Shown: positions 2,193 through 51,505 of the stretch, piece by piece
How the letters are laid out: each line of letters begins with the position of its first letter
How positions within the stretch are numbered: position 1 is the stretch's first letter
NCBI GenBank assembly: GCA_964532425.1
Contig: CAZHIA010000004.1
Location: 19,740-83,739, forward strand
Length of the DNA stretch: 64,000 bases
Direction of reading: 5' to 3'
Source of the DNA: an uncultured Candidatus Saccharibacteria bacterium
GTDB taxonomy: Bacteria; Patescibacteriota; Doudnabacteria; UBA920
Notes under the pieces: generated by a model
Seen by the model: the letters and a program-made list of their open reading frames with translations, nothing else
Database searches by the model: none
What the model was told of the DNA's origin: nothing
Position numbers and translations under genes: made by a program

Positions 2193-2305
2193 TGTCATCG
2201 CGAGGCACCAAAGGGCTTTAGCTTTGGTACCGTGGCGATCTTGCCAAAAAAGATTGCTTCACCCTGCTATTTTATTGCTAGAAAATAGCAGGGCTCGCAA
2301 TGACA
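2193..2305. repeat. Short element bounded by 12-bp inverted repeats TGTCATCGCGAG / CTCGCAATGACA; it contains the tgt terminator hairpin
   Basis: The terminal inverted repeats match those of the element at 28442-28593 (TGTCATTGCGAG / CTCGCAATGACA). An internal AAGATTGCTTC motif is shared. Confidence 0.5.
2245..2293 (-). terminator. Rho-independent terminator of tgt
   Basis: Hairpin CCCTGCTATTTTATTGCTAGAAAATAGCAGGG, followed on the minus strand by a U-tract (TTTTTT). Confidence 0.7.
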
Positions 2306-4608: not shown

Positions 4609-4697
4609 ATTAAATTACGGCAGGCCACGGGCCTGCACTACAACTCGCTGATGGTGTGATAAATGTAGTGCAGGCCCGCGGCCTGCTGCTTTAATGG
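4609..4697. repeat. Family-B palindromic element (two inverted copies of the hairpin unit GTAGTGCAGGCCnnnGGCCTGC)
   Basis: GCAGGCCACGGGCCTGCACTACA ...22 nt... TGTAGTGCAGGCCCGCGGCCTGC, with flanking CATTAAATTA / TTTAATG inverted. A related copy is at 30322-30400. Confidence 0.7.
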
Positions 4698-6755: not shown

Positions 6756-9080
6756 TTAAAACCTCGGGCGGAACGGTCTCGGATGATCATCATCTCCACC
6801 GCTGCGGTGCGGGCGGAACCCGCCGTGGCCATGGCCGTTGCTTCTGCCATTGCCACCGCGCGAGCCTCCCCTGCCCCCGAAGCTGCTATGTTCGGCAGCC
6901 GCTGCCTGTTGCTCCGGAGTCGGAGCCGCGGCGAACGGCTTGTGGGTCAGGTTAATGCGCCCCTGGTCATCAATCTCCACCACTTGAACCTTGAGCGGAT
7001 CGCCAACCTTGACTACATCCTCTACCCTGCCGACGCGGTAGTTAGCCAGCTGGGAAATGTGCACCAAGCCTTCCTTACCCGGTAGCACCTCCACGAACGC
7101 ACCGAAGTCCATGAGGCGGGTAACCTTGCCGTCGTACACTTCTCCCGGCTCGACTTCCTTAACGATGTTTTGGATCCACTCGGTCGCCTTCTTGGCCATC
7201 TCGGCATCGGTAGACGTGACCATGACCAAACCGCTATCCTCAATATCAATCTTCACACCCGGACAGTTGGCAATAATTTCGTTGATGGTCTTGCCGCCAC
7301 TGCCGATGACTTCGCGGATCTTGTCCGGCTTGATCATAAAGCTCGTGATGCGAGGTGCGTACGGAGAAAGATCCGGACGCGGTGCAGGCAGGGCTTCCTT
7401 CATTTTGCCGATAATGTGAATGCGCGCAGGCTTGGCCTGATGCAAAGCCTGTTCCAGAATATCAGCGCTCAGACCTTTCAGCTTCATATCAAGCTGCAAA
7501 GCGGTCACGCCTTCTTCGCTGCCGGTAACTTTAAAGTCCATGTGGCCGTTGAAATCTTCAATACCGGCAATATCTGTCAGCACTTTGAAGTTTTGAGGAT
7601 TAGACTCGTCCATTACCAATCCCATGGCGCAACCGCCGATAATATGCTTAATCGGCACACCAGCATCCATTAACGCCAAAGTCGATCCGCAGGTGGAAGC
7701 CATGGAGGTACTGCCGTTACTGGACATGATTTCAGAAACCAAGCGCATGGTGTACGGGAACTCTTCCTGCGGAGGCAGGACAACTTCCACGGCGCGCTCA
7801 GCCAAAGCACCATGGCCGATTTCGCGGCGGCCCGGACCCCGGACCGGAGCAACTTCGCCCACGCTGTAACCGGGCATGTTGTAGTGGTGGATATAGCGCT
7901 TGGCGCGTCCTTCATACGGATCTTCCATGCCGTCGAGCATCTGCTCGTCGCCCTTGCTGCCAAGCGTGACCGTGGTCAACGCCTGGGTCTCGCCACGGGT
8001 AAACAAGGCGCTGCCGTGCGTGCGCGGCAAAACCGCGACCTCGCACGTGATGGGGCGGGTCTCGGTCAGTTTACGTCCGTCAACGCGGCGTTCATGCTCC
8101 AGAATCTGCTTCTGCTGGTATTTCTTTAAGAGCTTGTCGATAACACTGTTAACCTCTTTGTCGATGTTGATCGGCTGCACAGCGTCCTGTACGGGACGGT
8201 CGCGACCGTCCCCTACGGGGGACAACGCCTCTTTGACCTGCGCCGTGATTTCCGTAATCAATTTATTGATATTGCTCTCGCGCTCTTCCTTGCTTTTTAC
8301 ATACACGGCGGTTTCGATCTTGTCGTCGGTGAGCAATTCTTTAATCTTGGCCATCAGCTGTTCGTTCGGCTTGACGATGATCGGCTCGGCTTTTTCCTTG
8401 CCGATTTGTTTGGCAAATTCAATCTGCGTTTCGACGAGTTTGCCTAAATGCGGCTGAGCAAACCGGATTGCTTCCACGATCTGCTCTTCGGGAATGATCT
8501 GTGCGCCCATTTCAACCATAATAATGTGCTCGCCCGTGCCGCACACGATCAGATCCATGTCGGACTTCTCCTGCTGCTCATGCGTCGGGTTCACCACATA
8601 CTGCCCGTCCACCTTGCCTACACGAACGCCAGCCACCGGGCCATCGTACGGGATGCGCGAAATCGCCAACGCCATAGACGCGGCATTGACCGCAACCATA
8701 TCAGGCTCGTTGACTCCGTCGATAGATAACACGGTGGAGATAATTTGTACGTCATTGCGCATGCCTTCCGGAAACATCGGCCGGAGGGTTCGGTCTATAA
8801 CGCGCCCTTTCAAAATGGCATCGTCCGTGGCGCGGCCTTCGCGCTTGACCCAGCGGCTGCCCTTGATTTTGCCGGCAGCGTATAAACGCTCCTCGTAGTC
8901 GACCAGCAGCGGGAAGAAATCTATGCCTTCACGGGCTTTGTCGGACATAACCGCCGTGGCCAGGACGACTGTATCGCCGAGACGGGCCATAACGGCACCG
9001 TCAGCCTGTCCTGCCAACTTTCCCGTTTCAAATATAAACTCGCCCTCCCCCACGTTGCAGGTAATCTTCTTACTTTCCAT
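6756..9080 (-). CDS. pnp: Polyribonucleotide nucleotidyltransferase (PNPase) with an unusual Gly/Arg-rich C-terminal tail
   Basis: Two RNase PH domains plus KH and S1 (GEVYDGKVTRLMDFGAFVEV). Start set to the ATG at 9080 (MESKKITCNVGEGEF...). The C-terminal tail is GGRGGSRGGNGRSNGHGHGGFRPHRSGG... Confidence 0.92.
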   Translation of the reverse strand: MESKKITCNVGEGEFIFETGKLAGQADGAVMARLGDTVVLATAVMSDKAREGIDFFPLLVDYEERLYAAGKIKGSRWVKREGRATDDAILKGRVIDRTLRPMFPEGMRNDVQIISTVLSIDGVNEPDMVAVNAASMALAISRIPYDGPVAGVRVGKVDGQYVVNPTHEQQEKSDMDLIVCGTGEHIIMVEMGAQIIPEEQIVEAIRFAQPHLGKLVETQIEFAKQIGKEKAEPIIVKPNEQLMAKIKELLTDDKIETAVYVKSKEERESNINKLITEITAQVKEALSPVGDGRDRPVQDAVQPINIDKEVNSVIDKLLKKYQQKQILEHERRVDGRKLTETRPITCEVAVLPRTHGSALFTRGETQALTTVTLGSKGDEQMLDGMEDPYEGRAKRYIHHYNMPGYSVGEVAPVRGPGRREIGHGALAERAVEVVLPPQEEFPYTMRLVSEIMSSNGSTSMASTCGSTLALMDAGVPIKHIIGGCAMGLVMDESNPQNFKVLTDIAGIEDFNGHMDFKVTGSEEGVTALQLDMKLKGLSADILEQALHQAKPARIHIIGKMKEALPAPRPDLSPYAPRITSFMIKPDKIREVIGSGGKTINEIIANCPGVKIDIEDSGLVMVTSTDAEMAKKATEWIQNIVKEVEPGEVYDGKVTRLMDFGAFVEVLPGKEGLVHISQLANYRVGRVEDVVKVGDPLKVQVVEIDDQGRINLTHKPFAAAPTPEQQAAAAEHSSFGGRGGSRGGNGRSNGHGHGGFRPHRSGGDDDHPRPFRPRF

Positions 9081-9216
9081 GAATTGTCCTTTCTTGCCCC
9101 GCCCTTTGCTCACAAAGAGCGGGGTGTGTTTCAGAGTGTTATGCGTGTTGACGAGGACTTTTTTTAAAAATCCTTCGCTATACCCGCACACCACCGCTGA
9201 AACATTAATAAATTAA

Positions 9217-9320
9217 TTGACAAAATTTAAAAAATTGAACAAAATTGACAAAATTATTCAAACCAGCCTGCAATTTATTTTTGTCAATTTTGTCATTTTT
9301 GTCATTTTTGTCAATATTAC
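9217..9320. promoter_or_regulatory. Iteron-like array: about 3 forward and about 4 reverse copies of TTGACAAAAT in the pnp upstream region
   Basis: AATTGACAAAATTT..AAAATTGACAAAATTA.. then TTTTGTCAATTTTGTCATTTTTGTCATTTTTGTCAA. Each unit contains a TTGACA (-35-like) hexamer. A similar TGTCA triplet array lies upstream of the xer gene (11965-11995). Confidence 0.5.
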
Positions 9321-9721
9321 TACTTCCTCATACTTCCCAGCATCTCTTCCTCAAAATGGAGCAGGAACTGGATCGGATCCGGGGTGCTGCCAAACAAGAT
9401 GTGGTCAACACTGCTGCGCTGGCCGCGGTCCTTCATGCTTTCCACGCCCTTCTCCTGAAACCAATCCTTCCATAATAGACTAAACTGCCGGTACCCCTCT
9501 GACCCCTCTTCGCCGAACCGCTCATAGATTATCTGGTATTTCGTCGTATCACAGATATTGATGAACTCGCTTTTTTCATCCAAAGTCAAATACCCATGCT
9601 TCTGCAAAGCATCTTTTAATTCCTGAATGCGTGGCGAGGTATACACAGCTTGGCAGATTTCCCTGCCAAGCTGTGTCCATTCGGCATCGAATTTTTCAAA
9701 ATCTAGAGATCTTTCAGTCAT
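9320..9721 (-). CDS. Hypothetical protein, 133 aa, inserted between rpsO and pnp
   Basis: ORF in track; no motif. Confidence 0.5.
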   Translation of the reverse strand: MTERSLDFEKFDAEWTQLGREICQAVYTSPRIQELKDALQKHGYLTLDEKSEFINICDTTKYQIIYERFGEEGSEGYRQFSLLWKDWFQEKGVESMKDRGQRSSVDHILFGSTPDPIQFLLHFEEEMLGSMRK

Positions 9722-12002: not shown

Positions 12003-13043
12003 ATGCTTCGAAACAAAAACACCGCCAAACAACCACCATTGAGCGAAAATAAAAAAACCCGCCCCCTCACCCCATTACAGCGTTATATTATTGAATTTCT
12101 TGAATATTGTGAGATCGGCAAAAACCAAAGCCGGCGGACCGTGGCCAATTACCACCACTACCTGGGACGCTTTGACGGTTTTGCCGAAATGCAGGGCGTC
12201 CACAAGCCTGACCAGATCACCCTGGAATTGGTCCGGAAATACCGGCTCTATTTGAACCGTTTCGAAGAACGGGACGGCCAGCCTTTAAAGCTCATTACCC
12301 AAAACTACCATCTGATCGCGCTACGGGCATTTCTGAAATATCTGACGAAGCAGGATGTTCAAACTCTGGCTCCCGAAAAAATAGAGCTGCCAAAGAATCC
12401 TATGCGCCAAGTCGAATTCCTGGAAGAAGAAGAGCTCCAGCGGCTCATTGACGCCACGGACAAAGAACCGAGCGAATTGCTCCGGGTGCGCGATCGCGCG
12501 GTAATGGAAACGCTGTTCTCGACCGGTTTGCGCGTTTCCGAGCTGTGTAGCCTGCGCCGCGACAACATTAACTTGGACCGCGGCGAATTTACCGTGCGCG
12601 GCAAAGGTAGCAAGTTGAGGGTCGTTTTCTTGTCTGATGAGGCAACGGCTGCCATCAAACAGTACCTGGCTAAACGGCCGGATAACAACAAGGCCTTGTT
12701 CGTCGGTCATTCGACCATTGGCAACTCGATCGAGATGGAAATAGAATCCCAAGGGTTCAAGTCTGGCAAAAGCGAACCAGTAGCCGAAATACAGGGGCTC
12801 ACGCCGCGCAGCGTGCAGCGCATTATAAAAAAATACTGCCGGATTGCCGGCATTGTGAAAAAAGTTTCGCCGCACACGCTGCGGCATTCATTCGCGACCG
12901 ATCTCTTGCAAAACGGCGCGGATATCCGTTCGGTCCAGACCATGCTGGGACATGCCAGCATTACCACGACGCAAATTTATACGCATATTACCAACCAGGG
13001 ATTACGTGAGATACACAGGAAATTTCATAATAAAAAAGAATGA
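12003..13043 (+). CDS. Tyrosine site-specific recombinase, XerC/XerD family
   Basis: C-terminal catalytic region HTLRHSFATDLLQNGADIRSVQTMLGHASITTTQIYTH (R..H..R..Y pattern); N-terminal SAM-like core-binding domain. Confidence 0.85.
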   Translation: MLRNKNTAKQPPLSENKKTRPLTPLQRYIIEFLEYCEIGKNQSRRTVANYHHYLGRFDGFAEMQGVHKPDQITLELVRKYRLYLNRFEERDGQPLKLITQNYHLIALRAFLKYLTKQDVQTLAPEKIELPKNPMRQVEFLEEEELQRLIDATDKEPSELLRVRDRAVMETLFSTGLRVSELCSLRRDNINLDRGEFTVRGKGSKLRVVFLSDEATAAIKQYLAKRPDNNKALFVGHSTIGNSIEMEIESQGFKSGKSEPVAEIQGLTPRSVQRIIKKYCRIAGIVKKVSPHTLRHSFATDLLQNGADIRSVQTMLGHASITTTQIYTHITNQGLREIHRKFHNKKE

Positions 13044-14324: not shown

Positions 14325-14402
14325 GACCCCGTAGCTCAGTTGGATTAGAGCGAGAGCCTTCTAAGCTCTAGGTCGCAGGTTCGATCCCTGCCGGGGTCAC
14401 CA
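14325..14402 (+). tRNA. tRNA-Arg (anticodon TCT)
   Basis: Cloverleaf GACCCCG/CGGGGTC acceptor, anticodon loop CTTCTAA, T-loop TTCGATC, encoded CCA. Confidence 0.88.
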
Positions 14403-16648: not shown

Positions 16649-16725
16649 TGGTGATCGCGGCAGGAGTCGAACCTGCGACCTTCAGCTCCGCAAGCTGACG
16701 CTCTATCCAACTGAGCTACGCGACC
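16649..16725 (-). tRNA. tRNA-Arg (anticodon GCG)
   Basis: Reverse complement GGTCGCGTAGCTCAGTTGGATAGAGCGTCAGCTTGCGGAGCTGAAGGTCGCAGGTTCGACTCCTGCCGCGATCACCA. Anticodon loop TTGCGGA with U33 and G37, encoded CCA. Confidence 0.8.
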
Positions 16726-21290: not shown

Positions 21291-21308
21291 CGGAACGCTG
21301 CATGCACG

Positions 21309-21346
21309 AAAAACCCCGTCCTGCACTGTGCAGGACGGGGTTTCTT
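21309..21346. terminator. Bidirectional terminator
   Basis: AAAAACCCCGTCCTGCACTGTGCAGGACGGGGTTTCTT. The stem is identical to that of the pnp terminator, with a different loop. Confidence 0.75.
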
Positions 21347-21359
21347 ATATCAAAACCGG

Positions 21360-23267
21360 TCAGGCTTCCACGGTCTCCTGGAGCACTTCTTCCGCGTGGC
21401 GGCGCTGGGTCTGTAAATTGTATATACGGGCATACTCCCCGTTTGTCGCCAGCAATTGATTGTGTGTACCGCGCTCTACGACTGCACCGCCGACAAGCAG
21501 GAGAATTTCGTCGCTATCAATGACCGTAGCAAATCGATGTGCAACCGTAATTGAGGTCACGCCTTTGGATACCTCCAATATGCTCTTCCGAATCTGTTCT
21601 TCAGTACTGCTATCGAGCGCTGAGGTAGCTTCGTCGAAAATGAGAACGTCGGGCCGCTTAATGATCGATCGGGCAATGGCAATGCGCTGTTTTTCGCCGC
21701 CCGAAACCATCAATCCCCGCTCTCCGACTTTTGTCAGCAATCCGTCGGACAGTTTGGCCAAAAACGGCTGCAGACTGGCGCGCTGCGCCGCATCCGCTAC
21801 CGCTTCTTCCGGCGCGGCAAAGCTGCCATAGCGGATATTGTCCGCGATGGTGGTATTGAATAGGACGTTATCCTGCAACACAAGCCCGATGCGCTTGTGC
21901 AGGGACTCGATGTCATAGTCTTGAATGGGGCGGCCGTCAATAAGGATCTCGCCCGAAGTCGGCTCATAGAACCGCAACAGTAGTTTGACGATGGTCGATT
22001 TACCGCTGCCGGTCTGCCCGACCAGGGCCAACTTCTTCCCGGGTTCGACCGTAAAAGAGATGTTCTGAAGTATGGGCCGAGGTTTTTGATTGGCGTCATC
22101 CTGAGCCGTGAGTGCATCCGAACGGCGAAGGATCCCATTTCTGGTGCCATCCGTAAATTGAGATGCTTCGTCGGATGCACTCCTCAGCATGACGCCAAAA
22201 GAAGGGCCATAGTCAAAGCTGACATTTTTAAATTCCACCTTCCCGCGCAACTTTTCCACTTTCGTCGCCCCCGGTTTGCTCCGAATCGTGACCGGTTCAT
22301 TGAGCACGCTCTGCAGCCGGTCGACTGCCGCAACACCTTCGCTGTATTTGGTGTAGATATCACCCAGATCGTATAACGGTTGGTATACGGCAAACGAATA
22401 GAAGTTGAACAGGATGACATTAGCAAAAGACAGCAGTCCGCGGAAACTCAACACCGCGCCCCACCACAGAAGTACCACGCGCGCCAGATTCACGACCGTA
22501 CCTTGGGCAAATCCTAAAGCCTGATACGAGACGGTTTTCTTCTTGAGCCGCACATGTGACAGCTGGTTGTCATGGTGCAAATTCTCCTCTTCGTGTTGTT
22601 CGGAGGAAAAAGCTTTGACCAACTCGATATGGCTAACTGCTTCAAACGAAGAGCCGAACAATTGTTCATTGATCTTATTAATCTCAACCTGGGTCCGCTT
22701 AATGCGGCGGGTGAAAACCCAGGTCACTAAAAAGAACAATGGAATGAATCCGAACAGGGCAACACCCATGCGCCAGGATTTCCAAAAAACAATCCCAAAC
22801 ACGACCACGATGGAAAAAGAGTTCTGGAAAATCTTATCGAATATGACCGAGAATAGGGACGTAATGTCATCGCGCGCCTTAGAAAGCTTGCGGAAGACTT
22901 CCCCGGCTTTTTCCTGGCTGTGAAAAGCCATGGGTAGTTGCAGGACATGGCTGTAGGCGTGTTCCAGGACGCGAATGCCGATGCGGTCAGCCACGGTAGA
23001 TACGAAGTAGGACTGCAGATTCTTAAAGGTGCGCGCGCCGAAGGCCACGCCAATCCAAGACAACACTACAAGCGTCAGGCTTCTGAAAAAATTCTGCGGA
23101 CTGCCGAAGCTGTACGGATTAGCCATGTACTTGCTGATGATCGTGGCGAAAAAGAACGGCTCTACCAACGACAATGACTGGCTTAAAATAACGAATAAAA
23201 AAATGAGGGCTATTTTGCCCTTTTCCTGCTGCCAATAATGGGAGAGAAAACGTAAATAAGGGAACAT
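21360..23267 (-). CDS. ABC transporter, fused permease/ATPase (MsbA-like exporter) carrying a 35-aa in-frame insertion in the NBD
   Basis: Six-TM N-terminal domain; Walker A GQTGSGKST, signature LSGGEKQRIAIARS, Walker B VLIFDEATSALD. Insertion GVMLRSASDEASQFTDGTRNGILRRSDALTAQDDA lies between the FDYGPSF and NQKPRPILQNISF segments. Confidence 0.9.
   Translation of the reverse strand: MFPYLRFLSHYWQQEKGKIALIFLFVILSQSLSLVEPFFFATIISKYMANPYSFGSPQNFFRSLTLVVLSWIGVAFGARTFKNLQSYFVSTVADRIGIRVLEHAYSHVLQLPMAFHSQEKAGEVFRKLSKARDDITSLFSVIFDKIFQNSFSIVVVFGIVFWKSWRMGVALFGFIPLFFLVTWVFTRRIKRTQVEINKINEQLFGSSFEAVSHIELVKAFSSEQHEEENLHHDNQLSHVRLKKKTVSYQALGFAQGTVVNLARVVLLWWGAVLSFRGLLSFANVILFNFYSFAVYQPLYDLGDIYTKYSEGVAAVDRLQSVLNEPVTIRSKPGATKVEKLRGKVEFKNVSFDYGPSFGVMLRSASDEASQFTDGTRNGILRRSDALTAQDDANQKPRPILQNISFTVEPGKKLALVGQTGSGKSTIVKLLLRFYEPTSGEILIDGRPIQDYDIESLHKRIGLVLQDNVLFNTTIADNIRYGSFAAPEEAVADAAQRASLQPFLAKLSDGLLTKVGERGLMVSGGEKQRIAIARSIIKRPDVLIFDEATSALDSSTEEQIRKSILEVSKGVTSITVAHRFATVIDSDEILLLVGGAVVERGTHNQLLATNGEYARIYNLQTQRRHAEEVLQETVEA
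22092..22196. repeat. 105-bp imperfect palindromic element inserted in-frame and codon-aligned (codons 358-392) in the ABC transporter gene
   Basis: Arms GGCGTCATCCTGAGCCGTGAGTGCATCCGAACGG and (reverse complement) GGCGTCATGCTGAGGAGTGCATCCGACGAAGCAT. A related partial copy is intergenic at 28505-28560, and a related arm lies at 30322-30345. Confidence 0.75.
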
Positions 23268-24925: not shown

Positions 24926-25127
24926 GGCGCCTGACAGCAGCCCCTACACTGCAATGATCCCTGTAGGGGCAAGCGACAGCTGCCCGTTCACCAACAAGTG
25001 GCACTCTCCTTGAATCTCCGAGGCGGGCGCCTGTCGGCGGCCCCTACGCTGCAGTTGTCTTCTGTAGGGGCTAGCGATCCTGTCCGCCGAAGCCTTGGCG
25101 AAGGCGGAAGCTGCCCGCCAATTGAAA
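24926..25127. repeat. Two tandem ~100-bp structured repeat units, each containing the hairpin CCCCTACRCTGCA..TGTAGGGG
   Basis: GGCGCCTGACAGCAGCCCCTACACTGCAATGATCCCTGTAGGGGC... and GGCGCCTGTCGGCGGCCCCTACGCTGCAGTTGTCTTCTGTAGGGGC... Confidence 0.6.
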
Positions 25128-28441: not shown

Positions 28442-28593
28442 TGTCATTGCGAGCCAAGAAAATTTCAATGTTAAATTTTCTTGGCGAAGCAATCTTATGT
28501 GTACGGCGTCATCCTGAGTGCATCCGAAGGATCTCAATGCCAGGAAAGATTGCTTCGTCAAAAAGATAAAGCCCTTTTCTCCTCGCAATGACA
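28442..28593. repeat. Composite palindromic element with 12-bp terminal inverted repeats TGTCATTGCGAG / CTCGCAATGACA; the right TIR contains the start codon of the pentapeptide-repeat gene
   Basis: Contains the nested palindrome CCAAGAAAATTTCAATGTTAAATTTTCTTGG and a partial copy of the ABC-gene insertion element (GGCGTCATCCTGAGTGCATCCGAAGGATC). Confidence 0.6.
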
Positions 28594-30321: not shown

Positions 30322-30400
30322 ACGTCGTTCTGAGCCGTAGTGCAGGCCCTTGGCCTGCCCAGATGCTCGGATATTTGAGCAGGGCACGGCCCTGCACTAC
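30322..30400. repeat. Family-B palindromic element copy 2 (inverted pair of GTAGTGCAGGCCnnnGGCCTGC hairpins) with a family-C-like left arm
   Basis: GACGTCGTTCTGAGCCGTAGTGCAGGCCCTTGGCCTGC ... GCAGGGCACGGCCCTGCACTAC. The left flank resembles GGCGTCATCCTGAGCCGTGAGTGCA of the ABC-gene element. Confidence 0.65.
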
Positions 30401-34085: not shown

Positions 34086-37000
34086 TCAATTCCTCACAAA
34101 ATCTTCCGTGACATAGTGGAAACTGTCGAGCGATGTCTTCGTTTCCGGCAACACTCCGGCAATAACGACGCTATTCCCAAAAAAGTTCTCGATGGTATCC
34201 CCTTCTTTTTTGAATAAGTTCTCGGCTTTCATCATGGCCGCCTCACGGCTGCCAATATATACCGGCAAATACTTTTTCGTGCCGAAGACCACCGGAACTA
34301 GTCCATCGCGACTGATGCTTCCCGCAAAGACTGCCGGAATGTTATTCTCGTTGATTCCATAAAAGAGTTTTATATTCCCTTTGGCATCTATAGCTGCACC
34401 GCTAGCAACGGAACTAATCCCGGTTTCAGATCGTATAATGTGGGCGTTGTCCAAAAACGTGCCCGTCGGCTTTAAGATGCCGACTATTTTCATGCTCGGT
34501 ATCCCGAAGAAGTTCTGCAAGCTGTCCCCCGGTTTTTCGAACAGTTTTTCCTTGCGCATCATTTCTGCCTCAACGGAGCCGATGATCATTTCATCTTTGC
34601 CAAGACTGCCAGTCCCTTCGGCCATGGGCAGGCTTATATTCCCCTGCCCGATCTGGACAAAGAACTTCGGGTTCGTTTCGGCAAAATTGATTTTTATAGT
34701 GGACTGCTTGAGCAGGTCCTGGCTTTGTCTGACTATCTCCGGAGAAACTTTGACCACAGCCATGGCACTCGCCGGCTCGGCCATGCGGGTACTGAAACGA
34801 GCGAACTCGAAGAACGCTAGGGTAAAAACCAGTGCCATAACGATCGGAGCCAAAGCGGATATCCAATTGCGCTTTGCCGGACGGAAGAATCGCAAGGTTA
34901 GAGAATTGGCTACTACGGAAACCGAACTCAATGCCATAGCCAGACCTGCTAGCTCGGGCTTAAGCACCAACCCGAAGCTCGCAAAAACGCGGGCGGCAAT
35001 CGGTATTCCAATCACGTTATAGAACAAGGCGAAGAACATGTTCTGTTTGATCTTGCCCATAGTCTCGCGGGACAGTTGAATGGAATTAACCACGTCGTTC
35101 AAATCATTCTTCATAATAACGATGCCGCCGGTTTCCATGGCCACGTCCGTGCCGCTACCCATGGCAACACCTAAGTCTGCCTGAGCCAGGGCAGGTGCGT
35201 CATTAATACCATCCCCCACCATCGCGACTTTCTTCCCGAGCTCCTGCAACTTTTTAACCTCGCCAGCCTTATCTTCCGGCAGCACGTCTGCAATCACATT
35301 GGTTATTCCACACTGGCTGGCAATGGCTTTTGCCGTACGCTCGTTATCGCCAGTAACCATATAGACCTCAATACCCATCTTTTGTAGTTTTTCAACAGCG
35401 GCCTTTGTTGTCGGTTTAACAGTATCAGCTACGGCGATTATGCCTATAACCTCACCCCCGCCCTCTCCTTTGAAAGGAGAGGGAGCGGAACCAAGCAACA
35501 TGGCGGTCTTACCAGCTTCTTCTAGCTTAGACTGTTTGCGATCAACACGTTCAACGTTCACGTCCGCATGCACTGCCATCATTTTGCGGTTGCCAAAATA
35601 GTAGGTCACGCCATTTATCTCGCCCTGCACGCCATGGCCCGGAATAGCTTTGAAATTTTTTACATCAAGCAACCCCACCCCATTTTCCTGGGCGTGTGCA
35701 TAGATGGCTTCAGCAAGCGGATGCTCGGACATCCGCTCCAGGGAAGCCGCGATCTGCATGATATCAGCTTCATCCATAGCCCCCAATGAAACGACATCAG
35801 TCACCTCCGGCTTGCCGTGAGTCAATGTTCCGGTCTTGTCAAAAATGATTGTACTGATCTTGCATGCTGCTTCCAGCGGCTCCCCACCTTTTACCAGAAT
35901 ACCATTTTCCGCACCCTTGCCAGTGCCAACCATGAGTGCGGTCGGCGTGGCCAAACCTAATGCACATGGACACGCGATCACGATCACGGAGGTAAAAGCC
36001 ATTAAGGCAAAACTGAGCGAAGAGTGAAGAGCGAAAAGCCAAATTACAAAAGTCAATATTGCTAATCCAATGACCGCTGGCACAAACCATGCGGAGATCC
36101 GATCAGCAAACGCCTGGATAGGCGCCTTGCTGCCTTGGGCTTCTTCTACCAGACGGATGATTTGGGCCAGCACGGTCTCGTTGCCTATTTTGGTCACTTC
36201 AAATTCAAAGCTGCCGGTCTTGTTGATGGTACCTCCGGCGACGGTATCCCCGATCTTCTTTTCTACGGGCAAACTTTCGCCGGTAAGCATGGACTCGTCC
36301 ACAGACGAGGACCCTTTCGTGATTACACCATCGATCGGCACTTTCTCGCCCGGCCTCACAATTACAATATCCTTCTTGGCTACCTGCTCGACCGGAATGT
36401 CTATGGTTTGCCCGCCGCGTATAACGCGGGCAGTCTTGGCCTGCAAGCCCATAAGTTTTTTGATGGAATCCGAGGTCTTGCCTTTGGTCCGTACTTCCAG
36501 CCACTTGCCCAAGGTCACGAATGTGATTAGGAACGCTGCGGTTTCAAAGTACAAATTCGGCACTTTACCGCCGGACAATCCCAGCACCGTTTTGTTCGCA
36601 GCGGCATACAAAACCAAATTCACCAGGCTGTACACGTAGGCCGTGGAAGTACCAATGGCTATCAGGCTATCCATATTGAATGTCTTCATGCGCAAACTCG
36701 ACCACATGCCTTTGTAAAACCCCTTACCTATAATGAACTGAACAGGTGTCGCCAAAATCAGCGAGACGATCCCCACATAGGGTAACAACCCCACGCCAGG
36801 AAGGGTTGAAAAAAAATCGATCATCATGAAATACAATAGCGGTGCGCTCAGTGCGGCGCTGGCTATTAATCTGTTCCTGATGGCTCGAAGTTCAGCCTGC
36901 CGTAAGCGCGATTCGGCTTCCGCATCTTCCTTCGTGGCTTCGTCGGCATCGTATCCGGCTTTTTTCACAGCCGTAATGAGATCAGAAATACCGGCCTGCG

Positions 37001-37148
37001 TTTCATCGAATCGTATAGAGGCCTTTTCCGCCCCGAAGTTGACTGTGGCAGTTTTGACGCCGGCAACCTTGTTGAGTGACTGCTCTATAAGCAATGCACA
37101 AGACGCGCAATGCATTCCATGCACGCGTAATTGAGTACGAGTATCCAT
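34086..37148 (-). CDS. copA: Copper-translocating P1B-type ATPase with an N-terminal HMA domain and an unusual ~270-aa C-terminal extension containing a tandem duplicated ~100-aa module
   Basis: GMHCASCA (HMA CxxC), CPC in TM6 ([11 protein letters not shown]), [17 protein letters not shown]. Extension repeats [33 protein letters not shown]... and [32 protein letters not shown]... Confidence 0.88.
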
Positions 37149-40510: not shown

Positions 40511-40593
40511 CGCTCGCATTCTCAGCCAAACCTTCTCAAGGTTTGGCTGTTTTTAATACGTTACTGATCTATCAAAATCAAATGTTCCTTCCA

Positions 40594-40629
40594 TTCTACA
40601 AATTACTGCATATGCAGTAATTTGTAGAA
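40594..40629. terminator. Perfect 36-bp palindrome TTCTACAAATTACTGCATATGCAGTAATTTGTAGAA
   Basis: Perfect inverted repeat; a variant with the same ACTGCATATGCAGT core lies at 41813-41848. Confidence 0.55.
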
Positions 40630-40748
40630 TACAATATTTGGATATCAATAATTGCCAACTACTTCGCAGTACAAGATGAGATACATCGCGGACACGAGAA
40701 CTCATTTCTGCTATAATTGAGGCGTAAATTCAAAAGTACCCATCCAAT

Positions 40749-41750
40749 ATGGAAAACAAGCCACTGCTGCAAACTGAGATCAGCGACCCTCTTAACATCC
40801 TCAGCTCTACCAAACAGGTAGCGGATAGTTTCCAATTTGTTTCGATCAATGAAGAGTCTTTGGAGAATTTGTCTCAAGAGATTATCAAGCGCTTTGGCCA
40901 GGGGCTCAGTAACCAGGAATTGGGTTTTACCGTTTCGGGGGACTTGGAACGGGACCTGCAAACCATATTCGTGGAAGACGCAGTGAATTTCTGTTTTTGG
41001 GCAAGCAAAGGGCAGTCCAAGTGGCAAATAGAACTGCCGGATGGCGGCAAAACGGAAGGCGGTTGGTTTGGGCTGCAAGCCTGCTTTGAACGAGCACTTT
41101 TAGAACACGTGCCAATCTTTGAGGCTGACCATCTGGCGCAATTGAATAGGACTGATGCCGAACATTTTTTCCGAGGTGTAGGCGGTGTGACGATTCCCCT
41201 ACTGGACGAACGCATAAATAATCTGCGCGAGACTGGGAAAATCCTGTTAGAAAAATTTGATGGACAATTTTCAAATGTTGTGCAGACTGCTAATGGTGAC
41301 GCCATAGAATTAGTTAAGATCATAGCCAAAAATTTTCCCTCTTTCCGTGATGTTTCGCAGTTTGATGGTATTGAAGTTAGTTTCCTCAAGCGGGCACAGA
41401 TCTGCGCCAATGATACTATACGCATCCTGAAAGACCATCATCAAAATATGGCAGGGCTAGAATTACTCACTGCCTTTGCCGACTACAAGCTCCCTCAAAT
41501 CTTGCGCATGTTCGGGGTATTGCAATACGAACCATCTCTTGCGAAGCGGATAGATATTTATGAGGAGATTCCGCACGACAGCCGTGAGGAAATCGAAATC
41601 CGGGCTGCTACTATTTGGGCGGTCGAACTACTGAGACAACGGACCCCTCACCTGACTGCCAGTGACATCGACAACACCCTCTGGCTGTTAAGCCAGGACA
41701 TCCAAAATGAAGCCAAACCATACCACCGGACAAGAACGATCTATTATTAG
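40749..41750 (+). CDS. DUF2419-like protein (putative queuosine salvage / Qng1-like)
   Basis: FCFW motif and C-terminal RTRTIYY resemble the DUF2419/Qng1 family; tgt is also present in the window. Confidence 0.5.
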   Translation: MENKPLLQTEISDPLNILSSTKQVADSFQFVSINEESLENLSQEIIKRFGQGLSNQELGFTVSGDLERDLQTIFVEDAVNFCFWASKGQSKWQIELPDGGKTEGGWFGLQACFERALLEHVPIFEADHLAQLNRTDAEHFFRGVGGVTIPLLDERINNLRETGKILLEKFDGQFSNVVQTANGDAIELVKIIAKNFPSFRDVSQFDGIEVSFLKRAQICANDTIRILKDHHQNMAGLELLTAFADYKLPQILRMFGVLQYEPSLAKRIDIYEEIPHDSREEIEIRAATIWAVELLRQRTPHLTASDIDNTLWLLSQDIQNEAKPYHRTRTIYY

Positions 41751-41812
41751 AGCGCTTTCCTGCTGCAAACTTTCCAACTTTACTTGGAACCTATAGCAAA
41801 CTCATGACCTTA

Positions 41813-41848
41813 TTCAACAAAAAACTGCATATGCAGTTTTTTGTTGAA
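41813..41848. terminator. Perfect 36-bp palindrome TTCAACAAAAAACTGCATATGCAGTTTTTTGTTGAA (bidirectional terminator-like)
   Basis: A-tract, stem, T-tract; between convergent genes. Confidence 0.6.
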
Positions 41849-41855
41849 TAACTAA

Positions 41856-51374: not shown

Positions 51375-51505
51375 AAATGCCCCAAATGAGGACTATTCGG
51401 GGCATTTGCCTGCCTGCCCCGGCACCATCATATGGTGCTCGGGCCTGCCGGTAGGCAGGGATGTGATTCGTGGACCTGCCTGCCGGTAGGCAGGTTCGGA
51501 TTATT
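51375..51505. repeat. Cluster of palindromic hairpins, including two copies of CCTGCCGGTAGGCAGG
   Basis: GCACCATCATATGGTGC; GGGCCTGCCGGTAGGCAGGG ... CCTGCCTGCCGGTAGGCAGG. Confidence 0.5.

Follow-up and report, generated by a model that had tools for sequence, protein, structure and literature searches.

A probable dimer of CGTC-tagged REP units, in-frame in an ABC exporter gene of uncultured Patescibacteria

Bacterial repetitive extragenic palindromic (REP) sequences have been split into two superfamilies, tagged GTAG and CGTC (Di Nocera, De Gregorio & Rocco, 2013; PMC3733652). In that account the tag of CGTC REPs, CGTC or TGTC (CCTC also occurs as a variant), is unpaired, the stem starts with A-T and the 3-nt tail has the consensus CCA, and stems of 8–9 bp and loops of 4–5 nt are given for the families CGTC-1 to CGTC-4. 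They occur mostly as head-to-head dimers, have no dedicated transposase and are sometimes intragenic, the dimers then encoding 20–30 amino acids; in recB of Xanthomonas, different REPs lie at about the same site. The superfamily takes in dRS3 of Neisseria as well as RPE-4 and RPE-6, two of the Rickettsia palindromic elements (RPEs). In-frame fusions of RPEs are summarised in a review (PMC10969869), according to which RPE copies carry an open reading frame (ORF) for a conserved peptide. Palindromic repeats inserted in-frame are textbook knowledge for Rickettsia and have been catalogued for several Proteobacteria, and no report of them in Patescibacteria (candidate phyla radiation, CPR) was found in the literature searched. 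Here we describe a 105-bp palindrome within a gene for an ATP-binding cassette (ABC) exporter, located in a 64-kb stretch of contig CAZHIA010000004.1 (hereafter the window) that had been annotated in an earlier note from the sequence. The palindrome is very probably a head-to-head dimer of CGTC-tagged REP units which became fixed in-frame where the nucleotide-binding domain (NBD) has a permissive surface turn, and which is most likely read through as a disordered loop.

Counted from the start of the gene at 23267, positions 22092–22196 are exactly codons 358–392, and in frame 0 of the coding strand they encode GVMLRSASDEASQFTDGTRNGILRRSDALTAQDDA. Only one of the three coding-strand frames of the element is free of stops, and it is the frame in use. 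The arms of the palindrome pair at 22090–22110/22178–22198 (86% complementary) and at 22110–22121/22171–22182 (100%). Folded as a single strand, the element reached −61 kcal/mol (coding strand) and −59 kcal/mol (opposite strand), with z-scores of −7.50 and −7.39, and 0 of 200 dinucleotide shuffles folded equally well. Codon arithmetic, arms and fold z-scores thus bear out the claim of the earlier note that an imperfect inverted repeat of 105 bp occupies codons 358–392. Unit 1 reads GG-CGTC-ATCCT-GA-GCCGT-GAGTGCATCCGA-ACGGC-GA-AGGAT-CCCA, with the CGTC tag at 22094–22097, an inner stem GCCGT/ACGGC, the 12-nt loop GAGTGCATCCGA at 22110–22121 and the tail CCCA; read on the coding strand it encodes ...GILRRSDALTAQDDA. 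Unit 2 reads GG-CGTC-ATGCT-GA-G-GAGTGCATCCGA-C-GA-AGCAT-CTCA and encodes GVMLRSASDEAS...; its CGTC tag appears as GACG on the plus strand at 22191–22194, its stem is ATGCT/AGCAT, the loop GAGTGCATCCGA lies at 22171–22182 (plus strand) and the tail is CTCA. The variable stem pair is G:C in unit 2, compensated relative to the C:G of unit 1. Rfam gave no match at the gathering threshold, and none at E values up to 10 on 22000–22300. A self-splicing intervening sequence (intein or group I/II intron) was rejected, as Rfam had no match and 35 amino acids are far too short for an intein.

Related units were searched for in the window with the structured pattern GTCRT..GAG...GAAG..AT, which occurs six times against 0.5 expected from shuffles: twice in the ABC gene, three times at 28442–28593 and once at 2252–2304. 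On a crude ORF map all of these except the pair in the ABC gene are intergenic. A plain count of the 12-mer GTCATCCTGAGC with at most two mismatches gave 6 occurrences in the window against 4.4 expected, which is not significant, the enrichment being seen only with the structured unit. An intergenic copy had been noted earlier at 28505–28560; it is related to the element as the unit CGTCATCCTGAGTGCATCCGAAGGATC at 28507–28533, around which lies the cluster of three units. The arm noted at 30322–30345 is related only in part: it has CGTCGTTCTGAGCCGT in common with the element and then runs into a GTAG-type palindrome at 30337–30400 to form a composite repeat; a palindrome related to GTAGTGCAGGCC is also found at 4620–4686. 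Intergenic palindromes of the GTAG type (for example, GTAGCGTGCC...GGCACGCTAC and GTAGTGCAGGCC...) were observed at 2052–2109, 4620–4686, 25040–25070, 30337–30400 and 51441–51490. The genome carries both REP superfamilies, CGTC and GTAG.

Outside the window, a unit with the loop core (GTCATNCTGAG..TGCATCCGA..AGNAT) was found in at least 120 metagenome stretches. The matches listed comprise two populations, a short TGTC form on soil contigs of higher GC and a GG-CGTC form on 35 CPR-like contigs of low GC (below 0.50). These 35 loci hold 65 units and 20 dimers of 70–130 bp; all 20 dimers have their tags outward, none (0) is tail-to-tail, and the architecture of the element in the ABC gene matches theirs. 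Spacers in the other dimers of the family measure 12–45 nt. The consensus of 57 distinct units is GGCGTCAT[CT]CTGAG-inner stem-loop-inner stem'-CGAAG[GA]ATCTC[TA], which the arms of the ABC element fit base for base. The GG before CGTC is conserved in most units of the family, though no search pattern demanded it, and the stem start AT...AT is present in 35/35 aligned units, A-T being in part a requirement of the search pattern. Most units have CTC as their tail and some have CCC, unit 1 of the ABC element among them. The stem has five Watson–Crick pairs, tandem G.A and one to five further pairs, closed by the conserved 12-mer GAGTGCATCCGA as loop or by a longer hairpin. Covariation was assessed on 35 units aligned in a register built by hand, with inner segments of equal length required and complementarity not imposed. 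In this alignment 98.5% of cells are paired, compared with 86% in shuffles and 23–57% with slid partners; compensatory changes occur in 5 of the 10 stem pairs, and 0 of 500 shuffles reached the observed covariation score. The unit scan of viral contigs gave 0 matches, and a literature search with the motif sequence gave chance primer matches only. The short TGTC-tagged form, 27 nt long (TGTCAT[TC]CTGAGTGCATCCGA..AGGAT), is common on soil contigs with a GC of 0.55–0.63 (for example, L092, L100 and L106, within L089–L208). In 33 of 86 units the variable pair of its stem is T:G. This wobble can form on just one of the two strands, a hint of a strand-specific hairpin (RNA or single-stranded DNA).

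The dimers of the 35 low-GC loci are mostly intergenic, and one of the 20 lies deep inside a long gene. This dimer, at 2037–2127 of JGI contig Ga0181520_10039561 (L094; GC 0.45), is a head-to-head CGTC-REP dimer in-frame in mnmA, encoding tRNA 2-thiouridylase (Pfam tRNA_Me_trans, E = 2.7e-70), which reads ...ATGHYARIPH[RRHSERVHPSEESQTRKEILRPSDALRTQDDAVW]GLSRSADEFKDQTYF... with the repeat-encoded part in brackets. The idea that the dimers are adapted to coding was rejected: stop codons are not depleted, with 1.62 open frames out of 6 against 1.55 out of 6 in shuffles, and the dimers look non-coding by design.

Compared with the CGTC superfamily as set out in PMC3733652, the element in the ABC gene is alike in its outside CGTC tag, the A-T start of its stem and its short unpaired 3-nt tail. 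The family is likewise multi-copy and dispersed, mostly intergenic, in head-to-head dimers with spacers and with occasional in-frame dimers. Among 131 ORFs located within 2.5 kb of the units no transposase family recurs, in a summary that shows recurrent families only. The element differs from the published account in its tail, CTC or CCC in place of CCA, and in its host, the Patescibacteria being absent from the phyla named in the abstract and the consulted sections of the paper. As its stem and loop dimensions depart from those given there, the element falls in none of the four described CGTC families and is best filed as a new family of the superfamily.

At the protein level, the insert is bounded by the invariant Y353-G354 and R397-P-I-L. 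Between the invariant segments ...VSFxY-G and RxILxxISF, about 55 orthologs have 2 residues and the protein from the window has 42. The earlier note had counted 35 residues between FDYGPSF and RPILQNISF, taking both as conserved; 35 is the number encoded by the repeat, and the flanking PSF, which is not conserved, belongs to the insert. The alignment of orthologs, one of the checks proposed at the time, thus displays the expected indel. The alignments of solved ABC exporters break off at about residue 360 and pick up again at 399, the exporters having nothing in between, in keeping with the claim that canonical ABC NBDs have nothing at this site. Tyr353 is invariant (83/83 sequences), and we take it to be the A-loop aromatic residue that stacks on adenine in ABC NBDs; on that assumption the insert starts one residue after the A-loop tyrosine, in the turn between β1 and β2. 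An AlphaFold2 model of the exporter built on 83 sequences had a mean pLDDT (predicted local distance difference test) of 89.6 and a pTM (predicted template modelling score) of 0.81. The sole stretch with a pLDDT below 50 was residues 358–390, modelled as coil between the strands E344–353 and E397–407. In this model, which answers the suggestion that the NBD be modelled, the repeat-encoded segment is most likely a disordered surface loop between β1 and β2. A fully tryptic peptide of the repeat-bearing protein is SASDEASQFTDGTR.

The host gene has the marks of an intact exporter gene. The encoded protein has the Pfam domains ABC_membrane (residues 20–297) and ABC_tran (residues 400–549) and keeps the full set of A-loop tyrosine, Walker A, signature, Walker B, D-loop and H-loop; homologs place its source in the Patescibacteria, near Candidatus Doudnabacteria. 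Compared with the ortholog at L082, codon positions 1/2/3 are 83/91/45% identical, and of the codon differences 287 are synonymous and 89 non-synonymous. Third positions are near saturation; with the motifs intact, this indicates purifying selection on what is most likely a functional gene. At 21305–21340, about 20 nt past the stop codon, a strong hairpin rich in GC was noticed, with T's after it (AAAAACCCCGTCCTGCACTGTGCAGGACGGGGTTTCT); it looks like an intrinsic terminator of the ABC gene.

These data bear on whether the segment might be a native functional NBD loop that is palindromic by coincidence, part of a decaying pseudogene or the product of an assembly chimera. Loop length at the site does vary somewhat among ABCB proteins, with about 7 residues in ABCB19, as a native loop would have it. 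However, the DNA of the units recurs at least 120 times elsewhere, mostly between genes, and the repeat-encoded peptide is not conserved between orthologs. Also against these readings are the intact motifs, the strong purifying selection and the identical protein found both in an NCBI record and in a Logan assembly made independently. The sole apparent truncation, in P0090 (L088), had been considered as a frame-disrupted allele and was rejected as such: directly past the repeat the contig no longer follows the ABC gene, and it stops after another 34 nt, so that the truncation reflects a broken or mis-joined contig at this point (L088 3090–3146). Native loop, pseudogene and artefact are thereby essentially excluded, with a very small residual probability for the three together. 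The earlier view that the segment is a repeat and not native coding sequence holds, given a dispersed family with six units in the window against 0.5 expected and its many metagenome copies.

The insert site is the sole internal position with an indel of 4 or more residues in 87 full-length orthologs. At this site 29 of the 87 carry 10–42 extra residues, all 29 of them in the closest clade. The orthologous inserts were typed on DNA at L002, L003 and L082–L088 (Table 1), and the palindromic families verified in this way number four, two of them GTAG-tagged, one multi-hairpin and one the CGTC dimer. Types A to E are all found among proteins that are 89–95% identical. In a neighbour-joining tree of the insert-masked alignment (200 bootstraps), P0002 (type A) and P0015 (type D), which are 94% identical, were sisters in 96% of bootstraps, and the type A proteins P0001 and P0002 (85% identical) were monophyletic in 0 replicates. 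The ABC genes of the window and L082 are 73% identical in DNA (flanks 72–76%), whereas their right repeat arms are identical at 43 of 44 positions (P about 2e-5); the left arms are unrelated. The two also have in common the right junction (...GATGACGCC followed by [A/G]ATC...) and a private inner stem CCGT/ACGG. The left junctions differ between lineages.

The residues that follow the element, NQKP in the window protein and GSQA at L082, are similar to those that close the D-type insert (GSNQP), which suggests that the repeat landed in, or mostly replaced, an older linker. The earlier description of an insertion into an NBD gene with the frame kept stands for the gene and the frame; the site was not pristine, an insert of about 18 residues being already present in the clade. 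Derivation of the 54-nt D-type insert from an eroded type A arm was rejected, the similarity being not significant (p = 0.09–0.9). P0004 and P0007 have 4–5 residues left at the site, and the KTQ..NP of P0007 resembles the two ends of a D-type insert; these remnants can be cited as a sign of palindrome deletion. Frame-disrupted alleles were not seen in the ortholog set, which comes from a protein-based search that under-samples such alleles. The contig scan with the ABC protein was dominated by generic ABC motifs and returned two close relatives.

The history that we favour would run as follows. The clade first gained an unconstrained linker of about 18 residues at the site, which would have served as a permissive 'safe harbour'. 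A short, non-coding, multi-copy palindromic repeat dimer would then have become fixed in the coding sequence of the ABCB-type exporter, at the β1–β2 turn one residue past Y353, with the frame kept by way of its sole stop-free frame. Its translation would yield a disordered surface loop of about 35–40 residues that leaves the ATPase core undisturbed and would be more or less neutral. Since then the site has seen several REP families come, replace one another and go, faster than the gene diverged, with high REP activity in these genomes probably feeding the turnover and the proneness of palindromes to deletion adding to it. The turnover is most simply accounted for by these three together, the older linker as safe harbour, high REP activity and palindrome deletion.

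Several observations weigh against this history or against the assignment to CGTC REPs. The loop of the unit has at least 12 nt against the 4–5 nt published in PMC3733652, and its stem differs from the published one by G.A mismatches in tandem and an additional inner stem that varies. The 64-kb window holds one full dimer and a few units, the count being limited to the window. With no recurrent transposase near the units, mobility is read from dispersal and turnover, and for translation of the segment and a working protein we rely on inference. A safe harbour by itself also leaves unexplained the near-identical arm and the same right junction in non-sister lineages, a pattern indicative of either site-directed capture or the recombination of short tracts among co-resident relatives.

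Site-directed capture would mean that REPs are actively targeted to this spot, whether through integration into a resident repeat, guided by hairpin or sequence, or through template switching at the hairpin as the DNA is replicated, and we hold it to be unlikely, though worth stating. The repeated occupation of the site would then stem from how the inserts arrive and not solely from selection for places that tolerate them. It would fit the four palindromic families at one codon in such similar proteins, the right junction common to type A inserts of non-sister lineages and the arm with 43/44 identities in a gene that is 73% identical, and the recB case in Xanthomonas (PMC3733652) offers a parallel. 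On the other hand, the older linker of about 18 residues is a neutral target that may suffice, the left junctions vary by lineage, and a common target motif is not definable from the single empty site (L002). Short-tract recombination between co-residents gives the same pattern as well, and a single sample is the source of both P0002 and P0003. That the β1–β2 turn is a REP 'landing pad', at which CGTC, GTAG and multi-hairpin families are captured or swapped faster than synonymous divergence, is accordingly offered as a tentative idea of low probability.

Selection might instead act on the hairpin for a role in RNA or DNA, such as a translational pause at the boundary of transmembrane domain (TMD) and NBD, mRNA stability or processing, or a gyrase/supercoiling site, with the peptide as a by-product. 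Independent structured elements do recur at the TMD/NBD junction, conservation of the arm in nucleotide sequence goes far past what coding would require, and REPs have been proposed to act as RNA or DNA elements (PMC3733652). We consider such a role improbable all the same: an insert is missing from about two thirds of the orthologs, in many members of the clade it is an unstructured one of 54 nt (z-scores +0.6 and +1.0), the insert types are unlike in size and fold, and these repeats are mostly scattered between genes. The reading as a REP dimer fixed in a permissive turn remains by far the more probable.

So read, the element can be set beside other repeat systems. As with RPEs, a palindromic repeat lies in-frame in housekeeping genes of a small-genome bacterium and encodes a segment predicted to be compatible with the fold; the in-frame position is kept in the loop of the ABC exporter, with a confident model, and in mnmA as a second case. 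RPE-4 and RPE-6 are themselves CGTC REPs, a link that runs only via the superfamily as drawn in PMC3733652. The host phylum differs, and whereas RPE copies have an ORF for a conserved peptide (PMC10969869), the dimers described here are not depleted in stops; in addition, several unrelated families occupy the same codon in relatives. With REPINs (REP doublets mobilised by RAYTs, the REP-associated tyrosine transposases) the element has in common two inverted REP units and a spacer that form one repeated entity able to fold into a long hairpin. In contrast to its CGTC tag, REPINs have a GTAG tag and a cognate RAYT (an IS200/IS605-like Y1 transposase), and no RAYT was seen among the ORFs surveyed. 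The GTAG-type palindromes at the insert site in L084 and L086 are closer to the REPIN class. Bacterial MITEs (miniature transposable elements with inverted repeats; for example, ERIC, Correia and Nezha) are similarly small, non-autonomous, multi-copy and built of inverted repeats, and at times lie in-frame in genes. Unlike them, the element has no target-site duplication, its flanks (...TTTTTGATT before and AAAAGAAGG after) being without direct repeat, it consists of tagged hairpins instead of a pair of transposase-binding terminal inverted repeats, and no related insertion sequence was identified for it. A classical MITE with terminal inverted repeats and target-site duplication is ruled out, and the element is not a GTAG/RAYT REPIN either. 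Of the earlier proposal of an RPE-like in-frame insertion of a MITE or REP sequence, the likeness to RPEs and the REP dimer are retained and the classical MITE is dropped.

Table 1. Positions of the ABC exporter gene, the palindromic element, related repeats of the window and insert types in orthologs
Feature	Position or length	Strand	Basis or description
Host gene, ABCB-type half-transporter (TMD + NBD), 635 amino acids, intact	21360..23267	-	ORF, Pfam, motifs
Whole lineage-specific insert, 42 amino acids (PSF + 35 repeat-encoded + NQKP), codons 355-396	22080..22205	-	Ortholog alignment
105-bp palindrome, head-to-head (tags outside) dimer of two CGTC-tagged REP units	22092..22196	.	Inverted repeat, fold, dimer architecture
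REP unit 1	22092..22137	+	Sequence, unit scan, consensus from 57 distinct units, covariation
Spacer between units, tip of long hairpin, 21 nt	22138..22158	.	Sequence, fold
REP unit 2 (inverted)	22159..22196	-	Sequence, unit scan, consensus
Three-unit intergenic cluster, CGTC/TGTC superfamily, nested	28442..28593	.	Unit scan, ORF map
TGTC unit in cluster	28442-28494	+	
CGTC unit in cluster, CGTCATCCTGAGTGCATCCGAAGGATC, loop core TGCATCCGA as in ABC element	28507-28533	+	
TGTC unit in cluster	28548-28593	-	
Single intergenic unit, type GTCATTGCGAG...GAAGCAATC	2252-2304	-	Unit scan, ORF map
Composite intergenic repeat, CGTC-type 5' half (CGTCGTTCTGAGCC) fused to GTAG-tagged palindrome (GTAGTGCAGGCC...GGCCCTGCACTAC)	30322..30400	+	
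Insert type A (window, L082, L088)	105 nt in window		CGTC dimer
Insert type B (L083, L087)	132-135 nt		Small hairpins in a row (-85 and -79 kcal/mol)
Insert type C (L084)	81 nt		GTAG-tagged palindrome
Insert type D (L003, L085)	54 nt		Encodes xTRINTDxKTDxHGxxx; non-palindromic (z +0.6, +1.0); widespread in clade
Insert type E (L086)	45 nt		GTAGGGGCGGGTTTGAAACCCGCCCCTAC, GTAG-type palindrome
No insert (L002)	6 nt		Empty site

Two further palindromes were observed inside genes of the window. A GTAG-type palindrome, GTACGGGACGGTCGCGACCGTCCCCTAC (reverse complement GTAGGGGACGGTCGCGACCGTCCCGTAC), lies at 8190–8217 inside the ORF for polynucleotide phosphorylase (PNPase; 6756..9194, minus strand), where it is read in-frame as ...SPVGDGRDRPVQDAV... 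and gives about 13 extra residues relative to the solved PNPase 5YJJ; it is probably the second in-frame REP of the window. A 9-bp hairpin, CCCTCTCCTTTCAAAGGAGAGGG, lies in-frame at 35461–35483 inside the ORF of a CopA-like P-type ATPase (34086..37148, minus strand), and exactly where the hairpin lies this ATPase exceeds the solved CopB 3SKY by 9 residues; the hairpin is probably the third in-frame small palindrome of the window. Elsewhere, two perfect AT-rich palindromes (40593–40630 and 41810–41851) with the common core CTGCATATGCAG flank a queuosine-salvage gene (40749..41750) and are candidates for bidirectional terminators or operator-like sites. At 9202–9315, between the PNPase ORF and a small ORF at 9320–9721, TTGACAAAAT-like motifs form an AT-rich array with imperfect inverted repeats. 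A gene for a XerC/D-like tyrosine recombinase (12003–13043; Phage_integrase, E = 2.8e-46) is located near two tRNAs, at 14325–14399 (plus strand) and 16652–16725 (minus strand), and near several ORFs without a Pfam match; this region may be an integrated element.

The locus depicts a CPR bacterium with a small genome that is rich in REPs, of the CGTC and the GTAG class alike, and can accommodate them within housekeeping genes, in the ABC exporter and probably also in those for PNPase and CopA. Such inserts enlarge and diversify the predicted proteins of CPR bacteria and can mislead annotation and orthology calls, and the repeats break metagenome assemblies, as at L088, and so give truncated protein predictions. 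Four repeat families at one codon in near-identical orthologs make the site a compact system for the turnover of REPs and possibly for the movement of CGTC REPs. If the tentative idea of a landing pad were true, the locus would be a natural and easily scored reporter for the mobilisation of CGTC REPs in an uncultivated phylum.

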